Assembly (NCBI GenBank): GCA_963977185.1
Contig: CAXBNV010000004.1
Span: 51,848 to 115,847, forward strand
Direction: 5' to 3'
DNA: 64,000 nucleotides
DNA from: an uncultured Gammaproteobacteria bacterium
GTDB lineage: Bacteria; Pseudomonadota; Gammaproteobacteria; JAGOUU01
In this document: piece by piece, positions 41,818-54,665 of the stretch
Position numbering within the stretch: the stretch's first letter is position 1
Layout: each line of letters begins with the position of its first letter
Notes under the pieces: generated by a model
What the model saw: the letters and a program-made list of their open reading frames with translations, nothing else
The model's database searches: none
Told to the model about the DNA's origin: nothing
Made by a program: the position numbers and the translations under genes

Positions 41818-41855
41818 TGTATTTTATACTATGGCTCCCCGGGACGGACTCGAAC
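41818..41855. repeat. att-site direct repeat (distal copy). It duplicates the last 24 nt of tRNA-Asn plus 14 nt of its downstream flank.
   Basis: tgtattttatactatggctccccgggacggactcgaac is identical to 54576..54613. Confidence 0.85.
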
Positions 41856-41987
41856 TATTTTGTAATCATTTGAATTTATTGAGTAAATACAAAAAGGACT
41901 CGAATTTAACCCAATTTCTTACCCAATATTGAGTATTATAGCGTAGTTAAATTGTTAAGGAAAGATGTGAATTGATAAGAAATAAAT

Positions 41988-42848
41988 TTACTTCTTATCC
42001 TTATTTTCTGTTTGATTTGTTATCTTATGTTTTTGTAAAGCGTTATTTTTAGTGAGAGATTTTAATTGGGTTATAGCAATTTGATTTAACTTTTGTAATC
42101 TTTCAGATTGAGAGATATCCATTCTAATAAACTCAGCATTCATTGATTCTAGGTTGGCTAGTACTAATAATTGCATAGTATTTGCATAATCACGAATATT
42201 GCCTTCTTTATTTGGGTTTTGTTTTCGCCACTCTTTAGCAGTTATACCAAATAAAGCCATATTTAGAACATCAGCTTCATTTGCATATGTTATTGAAGAT
42301 TGTTTAGATGTAATGGTATCAGGAATTAAATGTTCTTTAATTGCATCAGTATGGATTCTATAATTTAGTTTTGTTAATGCTCTATTAAGATCCCAGTTTA
42401 ATTCATTACGACGATTTTCATCTTCTTTAAGTCTTTGAAATTCTTTGATTAAATATAATTTAAATTCTGGGCTAAGCCATGAGCAAAATTCAAAAGCTAT
42501 ATCTTTATGGGCATATGTGCCACCATAACGTCCTGCACTTGCAAATAAGCCTTTAGCATTAGTTATTTCAATCCATTTTTTTGCAGACATGAAAAAACTA
42601 TTACGACCAGCTTCTTTTCTAATTCCCTCGAATTCGAGGGAATTAAAACTTGGGTTATTTAATTGTTCCCATACACTTAAAAAAAGGATGGTGTCTTTGT
42701 TTTTAAGCCATTGCTCAATTAATGCCCCACCACCATCAAAATTTTTTACTATGTCAGTTAATGATAAATAATCATTTTGTTGTGTTTCAATAATAGAGAT
42801 AGTTGTACTTTGAACGGTAATAGTTTTTTTCTTATTTTTGTTAGCCAT
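41988..42848 (-). CDS. KilA-N domain protein
   Basis: N-terminal KilA-N signature LSLTDIVKNF...GRYGGTYAHKDIAFEFCSWLSPEFKLYLIKEF. Confidence 0.6.
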   Translation of the reverse strand: MANKNKKKTITVQSTTISIIETQQNDYLSLTDIVKNFDGGGALIEQWLKNKDTILFLSVWEQLNNPSFNSLEFEGIRKEAGRNSFFMSAKKWIEITNAKGLFASAGRYGGTYAHKDIAFEFCSWLSPEFKLYLIKEFQRLKEDENRRNELNWDLNRALTKLNYRIHTDAIKEHLIPDTITSKQSSITYANEADVLNMALFGITAKEWRKQNPNKEGNIRDYANTMQLLVLANLESMNAEFIRMDISQSERLQKLNQIAITQLKSLTKNNALQKHKITNQTENKDKK

Positions 42849-43066
42849 AAAATTTATTAATTATGTTTGAGTAAGTATCTTTTACATTATCTATTCAGAT
42901 AGAAGCTTTATATTATACTCAAAGGTATAGAAGTGTTCAATAGTTATCAATTTCCTACAGAGTCAATTTTTTTAGCTTGACAAGATACTAAGTATTTTTT
43001 ATAGTGTTGTTTGTTATAATTCAAAATAAGCTTTTTAAATTATTCTTGTCTTTTTGTGGTTAATTT

Positions 43067-43303
43067 ATGAAATTCAAAATATTGATATTAGGAATAGCTT
43101 GTTTTTTAATGCAAGTTAGTAGTTATTCCTATGCAAAACGTTATAGTTATTCTTATCATCCTAAAACTTACAAATATAAAATTAGCAATGGCAGAACGCA
43201 TTCTGTTAGATCATATTTCAAAAAGAATGGTTCATTTATTTTAAAGCATAGGGCAGCTAATCCTCGTTCTGGGGTGCATTGTCGTAAAAATATCTGTTTT
43301 TAA
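43067..43303 (+). CDS. Small (78-aa) basic secreted protein
   Basis: Signal peptide MKFKILILGIACFLMQVSSYSYA. Lys/Arg/Tyr-rich with two Cys. Confidence 0.3.
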   Translation: MKFKILILGIACFLMQVSSYSYAKRYSYSYHPKTYKYKISNGRTHSVRSYFKKNGSFILKHRAANPRSGVHCRKNICF

Positions 43304-43417
43304 CTATTTATTTTTTAGAACAAATTTTATTCATGTCAATATAGTTGTTGTTTGGATATTTTGTAAGAAAGAAACTTGTGAGTGGATAGAATAACAAACT
43401 AAAAATAAGGTCTAATT

Positions 43418-52110: not shown

Positions 52111-52314
52111 TTAATTACTATTGTTATCATGAATTTTAGGAAGATTATTTGCCCAATTTTCTATTTCTGATCTTAGATAAGCTGGACGTTTACCAATTAG
52201 GTTTCTAGGCTTAGGGAAATCAGGAAGTTTTACAAGCTCATAAAATTTAGTTGATCCTATCCCTAATAATTTTTGAGCTTGTTTTGGATAAAGTAATAAG
52301 GACGAGTCTTTCAT
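52111..52314 (-). CDS. alpA: AlpA-family phage regulatory protein (Xis/transcriptional activator)
   Basis: LLRLKEVlkllGiSrstiYrlikeGkFPkPikLG-like HTH (LLYPKQAQKLLGIGSTKFYELVKLPDFPKPRNLIGKRPAYLRSEIENW). Confidence 0.65.
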   Translation of the reverse strand: MKDSSLLLYPKQAQKLLGIGSTKFYELVKLPDFPKPRNLIGKRPAYLRSEIENWANNLPKIHDNNSN

Positions 52315-52451
52315 AATAATTCTCCAATAAAATTGTTTTTAATGATCCATATGAGATCTTCATATGGTTATTGGAGTATGATAAAGAAAAAAATTTTTTT
52401 ATTCTGGCCTCGATTTCACAGGGTAAAAAATAAGCCAGTGTTATAGGGCTG

Positions 52452-53186
52452 TTATGTTTCAAGCATTATAGGAGCGATTTTATCTTGATATATAATTAAT
52501 AATTCTTTAAATACGTATACATCTGACTTATAACTTATATTTTTATCTATTAATGTTTGAATTTTATATTTGATAGTTTCATTTGATTTGGTTTTATTGT
52601 ATTCTTGGCAGTAATATTGAAGAGATTTGTCTTCTTTATCTGACATGTTATCTGCGGCAATAGTGATTGTCCGTAAAAAGCTTTTTAACTTACTCGGTTC
52701 ATAATAATTATTAGGCTGTTTAAGTCCTAATAATTCCGCAATAAACAATAATTCAAAATAAGCTTTTTTGATTATATATTCTTTGTTAAATGAAGAACCC
52801 TTTTTTTTATTTAACAATTCATATAATTTGATAATTTCTTGAGGAACCTCAAAAAAGTGTGATGAAAAATTATTATCAAAAAATTTTAAATCATCATTAT
52901 ATATATCTTGTTTAAGCTCATTCAATAGAGTAATAGCTTTATGCAGCTTTTTTTTAATTTTTTTCGTTTCTGTCTTGTTGCTCATATTGATTAAAACTTG
53001 ATGAAAATGCCATGAAGAGATTATTTCCATGGTTAATTCTTGTGATATTTCATATTCAAGAATATTATTTATTTTTGTTGTAATATTATCTAATTTATGA
53101 AAATTACTTTGTACTGGCGCATACATATTTAGTAATCTTTTCATCATACGTGTTGATTTAGTTAAAATATTATCTTCTTTAATCAT
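52452..53186 (-). CDS. Hypothetical island protein between int and alpA
   Basis: ORF only. Its stop overlaps the int start region, and it sits where PICI regulators lie. Confidence 0.35.
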   Translation of the reverse strand: MIKEDNILTKSTRMMKRLLNMYAPVQSNFHKLDNITTKINNILEYEISQELTMEIISSWHFHQVLINMSNKTETKKIKKKLHKAITLLNELKQDIYNDDLKFFDNNFSSHFFEVPQEIIKLYELLNKKKGSSFNKEYIIKKAYFELLFIAELLGLKQPNNYYEPSKLKSFLRTITIAADNMSDKEDKSLQYYCQEYNKTKSNETIKYKIQTLIDKNISYKSDVYVFKELLIIYQDKIAPIMLET

Positions 53187-54376
53187 AATGATTCCCTCTG
53201 TTCGGTGTTGTTCAATTTATTTTTATATGAGAGCCAATCACTATACCATTCCATTAATTGCCTACGTTCCAATTTAAAATCAGCCCTTAAATACACCCCT
53301 TTAACACCTTGCGTTTTATGAGCTAACTGAGCTTCAATTGCATCGCTTCTAAAATTACTTTGCTCATGTAGTACACTAGAGCTAAGACTGCGAAAGCCAT
53401 GAAGGGTATGCCTATCTTTATAACCAGTATTATGTAAAACCTTACGGGCAGAAGTTTCACTAATTGGTTGATATTTTTTTGAAGAAGGTGAATTAAATAG
53501 ATATGGTGAAAACCCTGTAATTAATTTTAACTGTTTTAACAAATTAACTACTGGGGGTGATAAAGGAACCCAATGAGGTGCTTTCATTTTCATTCTATCA
53601 ATAGGAATATGCCATTCTGCTTGATATAGATCAAATTCATCCCATTTAGCTAATCTTAGCTCTGATGGTCTTGTAAAAAGATGGGCTAATATTTCAATAT
53701 AAAGTTTTACTATATTATTTGCAGAGCTATTATTTATATTTTCAAGCATTGAATGTGCTTCATTCGATTTAATAGCTGATTGGTTTTTTATTGCAGGCTT
53801 TGGAGCTAAAACTTTTTTTAATCCTACAAAAGGAAAATTACTAGTAATAGATGTTCCTACAGCAAATTCAAAAATAGATTTTAATTTATCATGTAGCCTA
53901 TGAGCTATTTCATAGTGTTGTTTATTTTCATGGGGCTGAATTATTTGTAAGATGTCATTTTTAGTTATGGTATTAACATCTTTATTACCAATGATAGGTA
54001 AGATATCTCTTTTTAAACTATTGCTATGTTTTTTATAAGTTACATCTTTCCAGTTATGTTGATTTTTTTGTAACCAACGTTCAGCTATATGTTGAAATGT
54101 TAATAGATTTTGTTCTTCGTTTTCTTTTTTTCTAGGATCTATATTATTTATGAGAAACGAACGATACTCTGTGGCAGTAGCTCGAGCTTGCAATAAACTA
54201 ATGTTTGGATATTTTCCGATAGTAATAGTTTGTGGTTTTTTCTCCCATTGAAATCTAAATATAAAAACTTTACTTCCACTTGCTCTGGCTTCAATAGATA
54301 AGCCATCACGATCTTTTAGTCTTTTAGTTTTTCCATTAACTGGTTTTAATTTTTTTATTGTTATATCTGTTAACAT
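53183..54376 (-). CDS. int: Tyrosine recombinase / P4-type integrase
   Basis: N-terminal MLTDITIKKLKP and a C-terminal catalytic region HTLHGFRSLSSSVLHE...LAHKTQGVKGVYLR. AGAGGAAG Shine-Dalgarno 4 nt before the ATG at 54376; the track start is 54400. Confidence 0.85.
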   Translation of the reverse strand: MLTDITIKKLKPVNGKTKRLKDRDGLSIEARASGSKVFIFRFQWEKKPQTITIGKYPNISLLQARATATEYRSFLINNIDPRKKENEEQNLLTFQHIAERWLQKNQHNWKDVTYKKHSNSLKRDILPIIGNKDVNTITKNDILQIIQPHENKQHYEIAHRLHDKLKSIFEFAVGTSITSNFPFVGLKKVLAPKPAIKNQSAIKSNEAHSMLENINNSSANNIVKLYIEILAHLFTRPSELRLAKWDEFDLYQAEWHIPIDRMKMKAPHWVPLSPPVVNLLKQLKLITGFSPYLFNSPSSKKYQPISETSARKVLHNTGYKDRHTLHGFRSLSSSVLHEQSNFRSDAIEAQLAHKTQGVKGVYLRADFKLERRQLMEWYSDWLSYKNKLNNTEQRESL

Positions 54377-54589
54377 TTTTCTTCCTCTAACAAGCAACAT
54401 AGGGAAAGATAATCAATAAAATTGTTTACCCAAGATCTTACCCAATATATGCGCGGTTGTACGTGTATTGTTAAGTAAGGATAAGAACAAATTATAGATT
54501 AAAATAAACAATATTTTTATATAAATCAATAAATTAGATATGATTACGAAAAGTTGAGAAGTATTAAGAAAAGTCTGTATTTTATACTA

Positions 54590-54665
<76 letters not shown>

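Follow-up and report, generated by a model that had tools for sequence, protein, structure and literature searches.

A tRNA-Asn island of an uncultured marine gammaproteobacterium is probably a phage satellite of the Gram-negative PICI type, with relatives in Legionella

[quoted passage not shown] In Gram-negative PICIs such as EcCICFT073 and PmCI172 (Fillol-Salom et al., 2018; PMC6092414), int is terminal and lies beside a specific att site, an AlpA regulator accompanies a one-directional backbone, and the origin, in which two iteron sets flank a spacer, directly follows pri-rep, with terS downstream. The position of two iteron sets directly 3′ of the primase is specific to PICIs (PMC6092414). 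Accessory genes lie between int and alpA and past terS, structural and lysis genes are missing, and the elements span 12-15 kb, about one-third of a candidate helper genome. P4 and P4-like elements, the latter essentially confined to Enterobacterales (PMC10085698), combine a P4-family integrase at a tRNA 3′ end and an AlpA/Vis-family protein with their own primase-based replicon and defence hotspots; P4 carries the cos site of its helper (PMC6092414). VEIMEs (PMC9618062) and the PICMIs of Vibrionaceae (PMC10803314) are small integrative elements of marine bacteria with a tyrosine integrase, AlpA, a primase/helicase, sometimes TerS, and no capsid genes, and their concatemers are packaged in full-size heads (PMC9618062, PMC10803314).

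Here we describe a 12.8-kb mobile island within a 64-kb window (the whole stretch of DNA that was analysed) from an uncultured, AT-rich marine gammaproteobacterium. The UvrA of this host is at most 65% identical to that of any named taxon. All of the Gram-negative PICI features listed above, including the size, recur in the island, and we consider it a 12,758-bp integrative phage satellite of this type, with a probability of roughly 0.62. It is a member of an already known kind of element, not of a new kind.

The borders of the island are formed by TGTATTTTATACTATGGCTCCCCGGGACGGACTCGAAC, an exact 38-bp direct repeat present on the plus strand at 41818-41855 and 54576-54613. Shuffled sequence gave an expectation of 0.00 matches, identity ends sharply at both edges, and the distance from repeat to repeat sets the excised size at 12,758 bp. 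ARAGORN detected an intact tRNA-Asn(GTT), the integration target, at 54590-54665 on the minus strand (Rfam tRNA, 69.1 bits), so the right-hand copy (attR) comprises 24 nt of the tRNA 3′ end and 14 nt of downstream flank. The left-hand copy (attL) has the same 24 + 14 nt but is an orphan. The initial annotation had proposed exactly this arrangement, on which the repeat search, ARAGORN, and Rfam agree, and had attributed it to a tyrosine-integrase element inserted at the tRNA-Asn 3′ end, which the repeat, the tRNA, and the integrase support. It had also raised the possibility that the repeat is a generic element; within the window there are only the two copies, even when three mismatches are allowed. 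As for the compositional difference from the flanks that it had proposed to examine, k-mer usage differs (z ~3.6), but GC content does not.

Next to attR lies the gene for a P4-family tyrosine integrase (53183-54376, minus strand), 397 aa long when read from Met9, with the Pfam domains Arm-DNA-bind_3, Phage_int_M, and Phage_integrase and all of the catalytic motifs RPSELR, HGFR, AQLAH, and GVY. The longest ORF extends to 54400; translation probably starts at Met9 (54376), which follows GAGGAAG, the strong Shine-Dalgarno sequence that had been noticed earlier. Read from this residue, the protein and the integrase of an L. pneumophila island form an ungapped alignment that begins at residue 1 (66% identity, 382 aa). 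A 67-aa AlpA-family HTH protein, regulator or excisionase-like (52111-52314, minus strand; Pfam Phage_AlpA, 2.1e-6), is 72-78% identical to homologues in Legionella tRNA-Leu islands. The slot between int and alpA is hypervariable and holds a 244-aa protein here (X; 52452-53186, minus strand), whose gene overlaps int by 4 nt. Protein X is predicted to be all-helical and is rare, with just 12 homologues among 1.84 billion representative proteins; it had no family match in Pfam, PHROGs, PADLOC, or NCBIfam, and its AF2 model (pLDDT 47.8) was too poor for use.

Both recombination arms carry an 18-bp bipartite motif. On the integrase side, ACCCAAGATCTTACCCAA (54428-54445, plus strand) precedes the int ATG by 51 nt, and 130 nt separate it from the attR core. 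The distal arm (41896-41926, plus strand) has a second GGACTCGAA box at 41896-41904 followed by bipartite ACCCAATTTCTTACCCAA at 41909-41926, which lies 53 nt inside attL and forms part of a 24-nt repeat. Each arm has exactly one motif, in direct orientation, both in the window and in two islands of Legionella (L. pneumophila and L. steigerwaltii). The proximal 18-mer of the Legionella islands is identical and equivalently placed, 131-141 nt from the core, and the distal motif occupies the equivalent place, 46-50 nt inside the distal repeat. Thus, the distances from the core are kept (130-141 nt and 46-53 nt) despite different tRNA cores. The motif was found in none of 111 other fetched loci (0/111) and was absent from 2.9 million IMG/VR contigs.

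The replication module consists of a CHC2 zinc-ribbon primase subunit encoded by its own ORF (92 aa; 51820-52098, minus strand; Pfam Zn_ribbon_DnaG, 5.7e-14) and a 698-aa Toprim + DUF3987 (YfjI-family) primase/helicase-like protein (49731-51827, minus strand; DUF3987, 1.9e-89; Toprim, 8.6e-6). The latter starts at 51827, giving an 8-nt overlap with the CHC2 ORF. Split and overlap are conserved in all relatives, and the split is not a frameshift. The primase is 53-61% identical to proteins of Legionella and marine ssrA islands and 35% identical to YfjI of E. coli CP4-57, and 50,697 phage records contained merely 12 weak, partial matches. A candidate replication origin (49651-49712) begins 19 nt and ends 80 nt past the primase stop codon. 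In a periodic-word scan it comprised three ATTAGC iterons and three inverted GCTAAT/GCTAAA iterons, with 9-nt spacing in each set and a 14-nt spacer between the sets. TGCTAA(T) x3 ... (A)TTAGCA x3 occurs just past the homologous primase genes of L. longbeachae, L. donaldsonii, and a metagenome locus, so that iteron sequence and arrangement are conserved in four islands.

Further along the backbone, and oriented like it, is a full-length small terminase of the Sf6 gp1 type (TerS; 144 aa; 47976-48410, minus strand; Pfam Sf6_terminase, 6.4e-35; PHROG 1482). Residues 4-128 match the Sf6 gp1 structures 3HEF/4DYC (E 3e-22). Identity is 39-45% to annotated phage TerS proteins, which are common (homologues in 152 phage records), and 55-77% to "terminase small subunit-like" proteins of many Legionella species; the closest IMG/VR TerS is on a 9.7-kb satellite-like contig. 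There is no adjacent large terminase (TerL) gene, nor room for one next to terS, since a convergent gene starts 10 nt beyond it. Located 14 nt upstream of terS, in both the ORF list and metagenome gene calls, is the gene for a 184-aa protein with hydrophobic N- and C-terminal segments (48425-48979, minus strand), which is 39% identical to the product of the terS-adjacent gene of the L. steigerwaltii island. The ORF list also includes a 131-aa protein with a signal-peptide-like N-terminal segment (49066-49461, minus strand). Neither protein matched a family in Pfam, PHROGs, PADLOC, or NCBIfam.

The largest gene of the island is a 4.5-kb ORF (43418-47965, plus strand; 36% of the island) that the initial annotation did not mention. 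It encodes a 1515-aa DUF4011/Upf1-like SF1 helicase fused to an MTES_1575 (DUF559/Vsr-like) endonuclease (Pfam MTES_1575, 4.2e-35; AAA_11, 2.7e-22; AAA_12, 1.5e-12; DUF4011, 1.3e-4), with Walker A (GPPGTGKT) and DEAS motifs and PDB sequence matches to IGHMBP2, Dna2, and Upf1. PADLOC assigned PDC-S37 (1.6e-214) and Hhe (2.2e-115), while the NCBIfam scores for antiphage_ProA (710 bits) and Hhe_antiphage (529 bits) were both below the cut-offs (equivalog 1500 and 2000, respectively). By sequence, the helicase-nuclease is a relative of ProA and Hhe, both anti-phage proteins, and of candidate PDC-S37, making it a candidate single-gene anti-phage system and the putative main cargo. Near attL, a 286-aa KilA-N domain protein (41988-42848, minus strand; Pfam KilA-N, 6.8e-21; PHROG 2657 "transcriptional regulator", 3.8e-59) matches PDC-S22 over its full length (1.7e-128) and may be an accessory or regulatory gene and a defence candidate; PDC-S37 and PDC-S22 are both PADLOC candidate defence families. 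A 78-aa ORF with an N-terminal hydrophobic segment (43067-43303, plus strand; ORF list and metagenome gene calls), upstream of the helicase gene, had no family match in the PADLOC search. These PDC-S37, Hhe, ProA, and PDC-S22 matches bear out the earlier suggestion of anti-phage-type cargo. In relatives sharing the replication module, the same slot holds Type I and Type III R-M systems, AbiE, or a HamB-like helicase. In some population variants, represented by metagenome contigs, the helicase or KilA-N gene is split, which could reflect early decay or assembly error.

The backbone thus runs in one direction: int-X-alpA-CHC2-Toprim/DUF3987-ori iterons-two small membrane/secreted proteins-terS, with accessory cargo next. 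Pfam and PHROGs confirmed every gene named in the initial annotation (integrase, AlpA, CHC2, Toprim/DUF3987, TerS, KilA-N), and no island ORF matched a capsid, portal, tail, holin, large-terminase, or lysis family in these databases, as had been claimed. No capsid-morphogenesis or interference gene was recognisable in the island, and there is no prophage within the window. The gene set is, as proposed, that of a phage satellite. The proposed "P4" label did not hold, as Pfam and PHROGs revealed no psu, sid, delta, or epsilon homologue and the gene layout matches Gram-negative PICIs. The island does share with P4 and P4-like elements the integrase family and tRNA 3′ site, the AlpA-type protein, a primase-based replicon, and defence cargo. 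Its replication protein is of the YfjI/DUF3987 type, and it differs from P4 in its Sf6-type (pac-type) TerS; to our knowledge, P4 has no TerS. Size and layout fall within PICI screening criteria, and by domain set, as opposed to SatelliteFinder HMM scores, the island has four of the five core components of the SatelliteFinder "PICI" model (Type B; PMC10085698).

The satellite behaviour of the island (induction, excision, packaging) is our inference, as the searches turned up neither an empty site nor an excised form, and neither a virion copy nor a helper phage. Alternatively, though we regard this as unlikely, the island could be an integrative defence island like CP4-57 and not, or no longer, a satellite of phages: inserted by its integrase, fixed, and kept for its cargo, with TerS a relic or repurposed. 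The layout is that of E. coli K-12 CP4-57 (ssrA-intA-yfjH-alpA-yfjI-yfjJ-abpBA-rnlAB), the ssrA islands with the shared replication module have no TerS, and split helicase and KilA-N variants exist. Moreover, all sampled contigs spanning the locus (≥99.4% identical) are occupied by the island, none having an empty tRNA-Asn site. The att core had a single match in JGI metagenomes, which was an attL junction and neither attP nor an empty site, and it was absent from 2.9 million IMG/VR contigs. Metagenome and IMG/VR searches did not reveal an excised form or attP junction, and IMG/VR searches gave no virome signal and no virion-derived copy. However, the two 38-bp repeats have stayed identical even though host selection does not act on the attL copy. 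Int, AlpA, and TerS are intact, as are both arm motifs and the ori iterons; islands in distant bacteria share them at 62-78% amino acid identity and as exact motif copies, which argues that selection still maintains mobility functions. At least 15 Legionella species have a TerS conserved from end to end, and in both contexts examined it lies in a small int-alpA-primase island.

Two further origins are far less probable. If the island had begun as a temperate prophage and decayed, losing structural and lysis genes but retaining int, regulatory and replication genes, and terS, its phage-type TerS would be accounted for; phages often encode KilA-N proteins, and prophages, too, use P4-family integrases. 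This reading is countered by the lack of TerL, portal, capsid, or tail pseudogene fragments in the island, where the intact convergent 4.5-kb gene fills the space past terS, a replication module almost missing from phage genomes, and the PICI-type organisation of the origin. In addition, independent islands of three species have one and the same minimal gene set within a narrow range of repeat-bounded sizes (9.3-12.8 kb), which random decay is not expected to yield. It would be similarly surprising if the island were an integrative mobilisable element that moves by conjugal transfer through a co-resident conjugative element and not in phage particles. Small int-plus-primase islands can be mobilisable, and some homologues of the primase in Legionella carry the annotation "5′ DNA primase TraC", but Pfam, PHROGs, and NCBIfam assigned none of the island ORFs to a relaxase, coupling protein, or other transfer function, and a phage-type TerS plays no part in conjugation.

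As a satellite of the Gram-negative PICI type, the element would have been inserted at the tRNA-Asn 3′ end by its P4-family integrase, regenerating the tRNA and leaving the exact 38-bp duplication. It would lie dormant until infection by, or induction of, a helper phage, whereupon AlpA would be switched on and Int would excise the circle, with AlpA and/or the Int arm-binding domain acting on the TTACCCAA-N4-TTACCCAA sites of both arms. The two-part primase would then fire the iteron origin to yield concatemers, and the island TerS could pair with the large terminase of the helper for headful packaging into helper capsids. Multimers could fill a full-size head, since 3 x 12.76 = 38.3 kb is about the size of phages with Sf6-type TerS. 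While resident, the helicase-nuclease and possibly the KilA-N protein may protect the host against other phages.

Compared with the Gram-negative PICIs, to which it is likened by layout, the island is known from sequence alone, has no recognisable capsid-morphogenesis, Rpp, or Ppi gene, encodes its primase as separate CHC2 and Toprim/DUF3987 proteins, and resides in an unplaced gammaproteobacterium. VEIMEs and PICMIs, whose descriptions are our only basis for comparison, resemble it in gene content but were found physically inside virions, while our evidence for the island is genomic. Its closest kin in recombination and packaging are repeat-bounded tRNA-Leu islands of L. pneumophila (GCA_052991805.1, contig DBKKXB010000014.1; 10.3 kb) and L. 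steigerwaltii (LNYZ01000005.1; 9.3 kb), a kinship missing from the initial annotation; we found no published description of Legionella tRNA-Leu TerS islands in the literature searched. Identities are 64-66% for Int, 72-78% for AlpA, 62-67% for TerS, and 39% for the TerS-adjacent membrane protein; the 18-bp arm motif is identical, with matching geometry on both sides of the core, and all cores include the tRNA T-arm sequence GGACTCGAAC. The Legionella islands differ in targeting tRNA-Leu instead of tRNA-Asn, in their smaller size, in their accessory genes, which lack a PADLOC defence match, and in their unrelated replication modules (Zn_ribbon_Prim/Toprim_3 + AAA_25, or Toprim_2/AAA_25).

The replication module instead resembles that of the ssrA islands. 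CP4-57 and the Legionella and marine ssrA islands have the order int-X-alpA-DUF3987 protein-small ORFs-defence cargo, as in our island, and the Legionella ssrA islands share its CHC2 split, its ori iterons, and primases that are 53-61% identical. Their cargo slot holds R-M systems, AbiE, a HamB-like helicase, AbpAB, or RnlAB. In contrast to our island, they integrate at ssrA (tmRNA) and lack the TTACCCAA arm motif, TerS is neither present in the ssrA islands examined nor annotated in CP4-57, and their integrases are just ~29-31% identical (31% for IntA of E. coli K-12 CP4-57, a 22-kb element). Judged by these sequence matches, the island is a mosaic, with Int, AlpA, TerS, and att arms matching the Legionella tRNA-Leu islands and primase and origin matching the ssrA islands; one Legionellales island family would thus have supplied the modules for recombination and packaging, and another the module for replication.

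The sequence TGTATTTTATACTATGGCTCCCCGGGACGGACTCGAAC occurs twice in the window as exact 38-nt copies, at 41818–41855 and 54576–54613. Since a tRNA-Asn(GTT) gene occupies 54590–54665 on the minus strand (ARAGORN; Rfam score 69 bits), the right copy spans the final 24 nt of this tRNA and the adjoining 14 nt downstream. The left copy is an orphan, and homology stops sharply at both repeat edges. Repeat search, ARAGORN, and Rfam thus agree with the initial annotation, which had described exact 38-bp repeats at the tRNA-Asn 3′ end with an orphan copy on the left. No third copy was present in the window when up to three mismatches were allowed, and the chance expectation is none. 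Excision between the repeats would release a predicted circle of 12,758 bp, within the size range of phage-inducible chromosomal islands (PICIs; about 12–15 kb). A comparison of composition with the flanks, proposed earlier as a check, gave a split result: GC content is no island marker (28.6% versus 28.1%), while the tetranucleotide L1 distance of the island (0.151) exceeds that of every equal-size flank window (0.104 ± 0.013, leave-out; z ~3.6), a modest signal. We conclude that the island is almost certainly an integrase-borne mobile element.

We characterized the genes between the repeats. Searches with Pfam, PHROGs, PADLOC, and NCBIfam recovered every gene that had been named from the sequence. 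As in PICIs, a tyrosine integrase gene (int, 53183–54376, minus strand; Arm-DNA-bind_3, Phage_int_M, and Phage_integrase domains) lies at one end, adjoining a specific att site marked by direct repeats. The integrase most likely starts at Met9, which has GAGGAAG upstream; from this residue, the protein gives an ungapped alignment with its L. pneumophila homologue that begins at residue 1. On the same strand follow orf244 (52452–53186; 244 aa), which overlaps int by 4 nt; alpA (52111–52314; Pfam Phage_AlpA, 2.1e-6), sited between int and the replication module like the AlpA regulators of PICIs; an ORF encoding a CHC2 zinc ribbon (51820–52098); and, overlapping it by 8 nt, the gene for a Toprim + DUF3987 protein (49731–51827; Pfam). 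After a 269-nt iteron-containing gap from the primase stop codon come orf131 (49066–49461), whose product has a signal-peptide-like N terminus, orf184 (48425–48979), with hydrophobic N- and C-terminal segments, and terS (47976–48410), which encodes an Sf6-type small terminase (Sf6_terminase, 6.4e-35). The backbone from int to terS is therefore entirely on the minus strand, with short gaps or overlaps, matching the unidirectionality of PICIs. The only opposite-strand genes are cargo: a 78-aa ORF (orf78) and a 1515-aa ORF (43418–47965), which converges on terS with a gap of 10 nt. A third cargo gene, for a KilA-N protein, is on the minus strand (41988–42848).

As expected of PICIs, phage structural and lysis genes are absent: no ORF of 60 aa or longer has a Pfam or PHROGs match to capsid, portal, tail, holin, endolysin, or large-terminase families. 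The capsid-morphogenesis or interference genes of PICIs were not recognized either: orf131, orf184, and orf244 have no matches in Pfam, PHROGs, PADLOC, or NCBIfam. For orf244, we found only 12 homologues among 1.84 billion representative proteins, and a single-sequence AF2 model had a pLDDT of 47.8. Scanning for promoters and terminators was of no help in such AT-rich DNA (76 sites versus 80 expected). The GC content of terS (35.4%) is the highest among island genes (others 23–31%; island 28.6%), which may reflect stronger constraint or more recent arrival.

The primase-replicase module (CHC2 + Toprim/DUF3987), a further PICI component, is intact and conserved. All relatives have the same overlap between a CHC2 ORF and the DUF3987 ORF, which indicates that the split primase is genuine. 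The CHC2 and DUF3987 proteins are 40–57% and 53–61% identical, respectively, to those of islands at ssrA in L. longbeachae, L. donaldsonii, and marine and other metagenomes; judged by these identities, the replication module belongs to the ssrA-island family. These islands have the order int-X-alpA-CHC2-primase (X occupying the place of orf244), followed by cargo, and their integrases are ~29% identical to that of the window. No TerS was found in the primase-related ssrA islands examined. A DUF5681-like ORF in one metagenomic ssrA island (L110) was considered as a TerS and rejected, its similarity not being significant.

A candidate replication origin lies at 49651–49712, 19–80 nt 3′ of the primase stop codon. 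It consists of three GCTAAT/GCTAAA words (9-nt spacing), a 14-nt spacer, and three ATTAGC words (9-nt spacing). The pattern of three TGCTAA(T) words followed by three (A)TTAGCA words is also found 3′ of the primase in L. longbeachae, L. donaldsonii, and L110, such that a putative iteron-type origin after the primase, which forms part of the PICI definition (PMC6092414), is kept in three related islands. In L022 (12162–12235), L025 (12162–12235), and L110 (7582–7655), the iterons fall within the 5′ part of a post-primase ORF; in the Legionella ssrA islands, this ORF (128 or 126 aa) may be mis-called, either at its start or as a whole.

The presence of a small terminase homologue is another PICI feature; no pac site was recognized. 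The alignment of TerS with Sf6 gp1, a protein of known crystal structure, covers residues 4–128 (E 3e-22). TerS also shares 39–45% identity with proteins annotated as TerS in Ralstonia, Pseudomonas, HK620, and Kapi1-type phages (152 phage records). The primase, compared with 50,697 phage records, gave 12 matches, all weak. Such a pairing, of a phage-type packaging protein with a non-phage replicon, is a satellite signature.

Homologues of TerS number 626 at E ≤1e-15. The best 120 of these are 55–77% identical, and the organism-named proteins among them are nearly all from Legionella (at least 15 species), Fluoribacter, Legionellaceae, and Coxiellaceae. Both of the TerS contexts examined proved to be small, direct-repeat-bounded islands at tRNA-Leu genes, one of 10,288 bp in L. 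pneumophila (L126 4493–14805; GCA_052991805.1) and one of 9,262 bp in L. steigerwaltii (L129 8202–17494; LNYZ01000005.1). Each carries int, X, an AlpA-like HTH_17 protein, an Sf6-type TerS, and a few accessory genes, together with a primase-helicase that differs in type from that of the window. Identities between the window and tRNA-Leu islands are 64–66% for Int, 72–78% for AlpA, 62–67% for TerS, and 39% for orf184. On these comparisons, the window island is a mosaic, with replication from one island family and recombination and packaging from another. The tRNA-Leu islands look like an undescribed satellite family in Legionella. The literature searched, to which the SatelliteFinder supplementary tables did not belong, contained no description of Legionella satellites, and the 2025 paper on LME-1, the first isolated Legionella phage, makes no mention of satellites (PMC12407071).

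The three TerS islands also share their recombination arms. An 18-mer, ACCCAAGATCTTACCCAA, composed of two TTACCCAA half-sites 12 bp apart, is present in exactly two copies per island, in direct orientation, in the window and both tRNA-Leu islands, with no copies in 111 other fetched loci. The int-proximal copy is found in the interval separating the att core from int, 130–141 nt from the core (in the window, 51 nt upstream of the int ATG), and the distal copy lies 46–53 nt inside the distal repeat, where the window reads ACCCAATTTCTTACCCAA. The whole arms have 74–76% column identity across the three islands, and the alignment includes a second GGACTCGAA box just ahead of the distal motif. The T-arm sequence GGACTCGAAC is present in each of the three att cores, which derive from different tRNAs. 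We infer that the arm motifs are sites for the Arm-DNA-bind_3 domain of the integrase or for AlpA. The window island thus carries int, alpA, terS, and TTACCCAA-N4-TTACCCAA on both arms, the features by which we define a family of Legionellales TerS tRNA islands.

In IMG/VR, TerS relatives are mostly on contigs of 35–40 kb. The closest (61% identical) is on a 9.7-kb contig (L027 1–9675; IMGVR_UViG_3300046516_002098) that lacks structural genes and encodes an integrase, a Toprim/DnaB-like primase-helicase, a trypsin-like peptidase, and HTH_17 and HTH_36 proteins. Because the integrase sits mid-contig, the gene order is that expected of an excised or concatemeric satellite; a search for terminal overlap in this contig found none. 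Since three island copies amount to 38.3 kb, multimer packaging in full-size heads is numerically plausible, though speculative.

The largest gene of the island, the 1515-aa ORF, was missing from the initial annotation and makes up 36% of the element. Its product combines DUF4011 with an SF1 helicase resembling Upf1/IGHMBP2, in which the Walker A and DEAS motifs are intact, and carries at its C terminus an MTES_1575 endonuclease (DUF559/Vsr-like). The best PADLOC match was the candidate defence family PDC-S37 (1.6e-214); Hhe was also matched (2.2e-115). In NCBIfam, the protein scored 710 bits against 'anti-phage protein ProA' and 529 bits against 'DUF4011 domain-containing anti-phage protein Hhe', sharing their domain architecture. 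Because these scores fall far under the equivalog cut-offs (1500 bits for ProA and 2000 bits for Hhe), the protein is related to the Hhe and ProA families but falls outside them. Over its full length, the KilA-N protein matches the candidate family PDC-S22 (1.7e-128; PADLOC); PHROGs classes it as a transcriptional regulator. Among variants of the island, the helicase-nuclease gene is split in L002 (16436–20990; 621 + 888 aa), the KilA-N gene is split in L010 (8343–9192; 234 + 62 aa), and L003 encodes an X of 262 aa and a primase of 702 aa. These may represent early decay or assembly errors.

We detected the island at ≥99.4% nucleotide identity on more than 20 Tara, ENA, and Logan contigs, the longest 121 kb. 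The host is an unplaced gammaproteobacterium of ~28% GC, since UvrA matches with an organism name, from Kangiellaceae, Chromatiales, Vibrio, and others, reach at most 65% identity, giving no resolution below class. A relative with 86% identical UvrA encodes, at L021 1275–2495, a Glyco_transf_88 protein (a Legionella Lgt-type glucosyltransferase) between ssb and a homologue of the window's 315-aa gene. The window itself is rich in ORFan genes, which together with Glyco_transf_88 in the relative hints at a lifestyle associated with a eukaryotic host. At 21147–26598, the window carries three tandem genes of ~590 aa without a Pfam match; the first two share 85% identity, including long 100% stretches that suggest gene conversion, and the three may form a lineage-specific effector-like family. 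A short tandem repeat with a 9-nt period (GAAAATATA-like) is found at 18520–18555, inside a gene cluster 3′ of a GspD secretin gene (10028–12049).

An empty tRNA-Asn site and a circular junction had been put forward as checks on mobility; neither was found in contigs, a metagenome scan with the 38-mer, or IMG/VR. When both flanking genes were looked up by exact protein match, every contig retrieved was either occupied or truncated, and contigs of the 99% and 86% UvrA relatives end short of the locus. The single match in the metagenome scan was an attL junction, with no attP or empty site, and the att core, the attP-configuration pattern, and the arm motif each gave 0 matches in IMG/VR. In a ~98.5%-identical strain, the ENA and Logan assemblies, which are independent, both terminate precisely where ssb ends (window 40164), and a contig from the same sample starts within attR, at window 54584 (loci L019, L020, and L008). 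These ends prove nothing in themselves; the region from ssb to tRNA-Asn may be structurally polymorphic.

A model that accommodates these data is that the island is a functional satellite, to which we assign a probability of roughly 0.6. It is integrated at a tRNA 3′ end, its int, alpA, primase, terS, and cargo are intact as read from the DNA, and its arm motifs and iterons are conserved. The main rival, which we consider unlikely, is a fixed defence island resembling CP4-57 of E. coli K-12, in which TerS would be a relic or repurposed. CP4-57 has the same layout (ssrA-intA-yfjH-alpA-yfjI-yfjJ-abpBA-rnlAB), with YfjI and IntA 35% and 31% identical to their island counterparts, and defence systems occupy the same post-replication slot in ssrA islands that share the window primase: a Type III R-M system plus AbiE in L. 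donaldsonii (L025 13229–22112), a Type I R-M system on a marine GROS21 contig (L107 11783–20683), and a HamB-like helicase (PDC-M23B) in L110 (12799–15978). Against the satellite model, no attB, attP, or virion-derived copies were present in contigs, the metagenome 38-mer scan, or IMG/VR, no helper phage is known, and the helicase-nuclease or KilA-N gene is split in a few population variants. A prophage remnant and a conjugatively mobilised element are each highly improbable: structural-gene debris is absent, Pfam, PHROGs, and NCBIfam gave no relaxase match, and a compact gene set is common to three species.

A broader reading, which we hold tentatively, places the satellite and its Legionella sisters in an undescribed, order-spanning family of TerS satellites in Legionellales-like, probably protist-associated hosts. 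TerS would then predict undiscovered headful helpers, and replication modules of the DUF3987 and Toprim/AAA_25 types would have been exchanged on a fixed chassis of int-alpA-attP-arm-terS. PICI-like satellites are widespread in Proteobacteria and marine bacteria (PMC10085698; PMC9618062; PMC10803314), and the Legionella sister family is the less expected result. If the element functions as proposed, an uncultured marine gammaproteobacterium with AT-rich DNA joins the hosts of PICI-type satellites, and a conserved sister family would be indicated in numerous Legionella species, among them L. pneumophila, whose 10.3-kb island would give Legionella researchers a tractable handle. The Sf6-type TerS of a satellite would also be indirect evidence for undiscovered pac-type helper phages. 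The element would further be a clear case of two island families swapping modules and an example of defence cargo (a ProA/Hhe-like helicase-nuclease) riding on a satellite chassis. The satellite concept itself is unchanged by these results.

The proposed life cycle follows EcCICFT073 and SaPIs by analogy (PMC6092414). A helper phage would trigger alpA; Int, with or without AlpA, would excise the circle via the two arm sites; and the two-part primase would fire the iteron origin. The island TerS would then recruit the large terminase of the helper, leading to headful packaging. Meanwhile, the helicase-nuclease, and perhaps the KilA-N protein, would protect the lysogen from other phages.

Comparison with known satellites favors one half of the original 'P4/PICI-like' label. 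P4-like satellites are defined by the capsid-hijacking operon psu-delta-sid plus epsilon (PMC10085698), and no island ORF has a Pfam or PHROG match to psu, delta, sid, or epsilon (ash). SatelliteFinder recognizes five core PICI components, namely int, an alpA/merR/stl regulator, pri-rep, capsid morphogenesis, and terS; elements with four of the five are Type B, and tail, holin, and portal-type genes are forbidden (PMC10085698). Counting domain-level equivalents, the island has four of the five and no forbidden genes, and it conforms to the 2018 screening criteria in its gene organization, lack of structural and lysis genes, and size (12–15 kb). Lacking psu, delta, sid, and epsilon, the island loses the P4 part of its label and is best described as a candidate PICI-type satellite. 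P4-like satellites carry an integrase, an AlpA-type regulator, and an alpha primase-helicase; in the island, Int and AlpA are present and the replication protein is of the YfjI/DUF3987 type. With Gram-negative PICIs, it shares a unidirectional backbone and a putative iteron origin.
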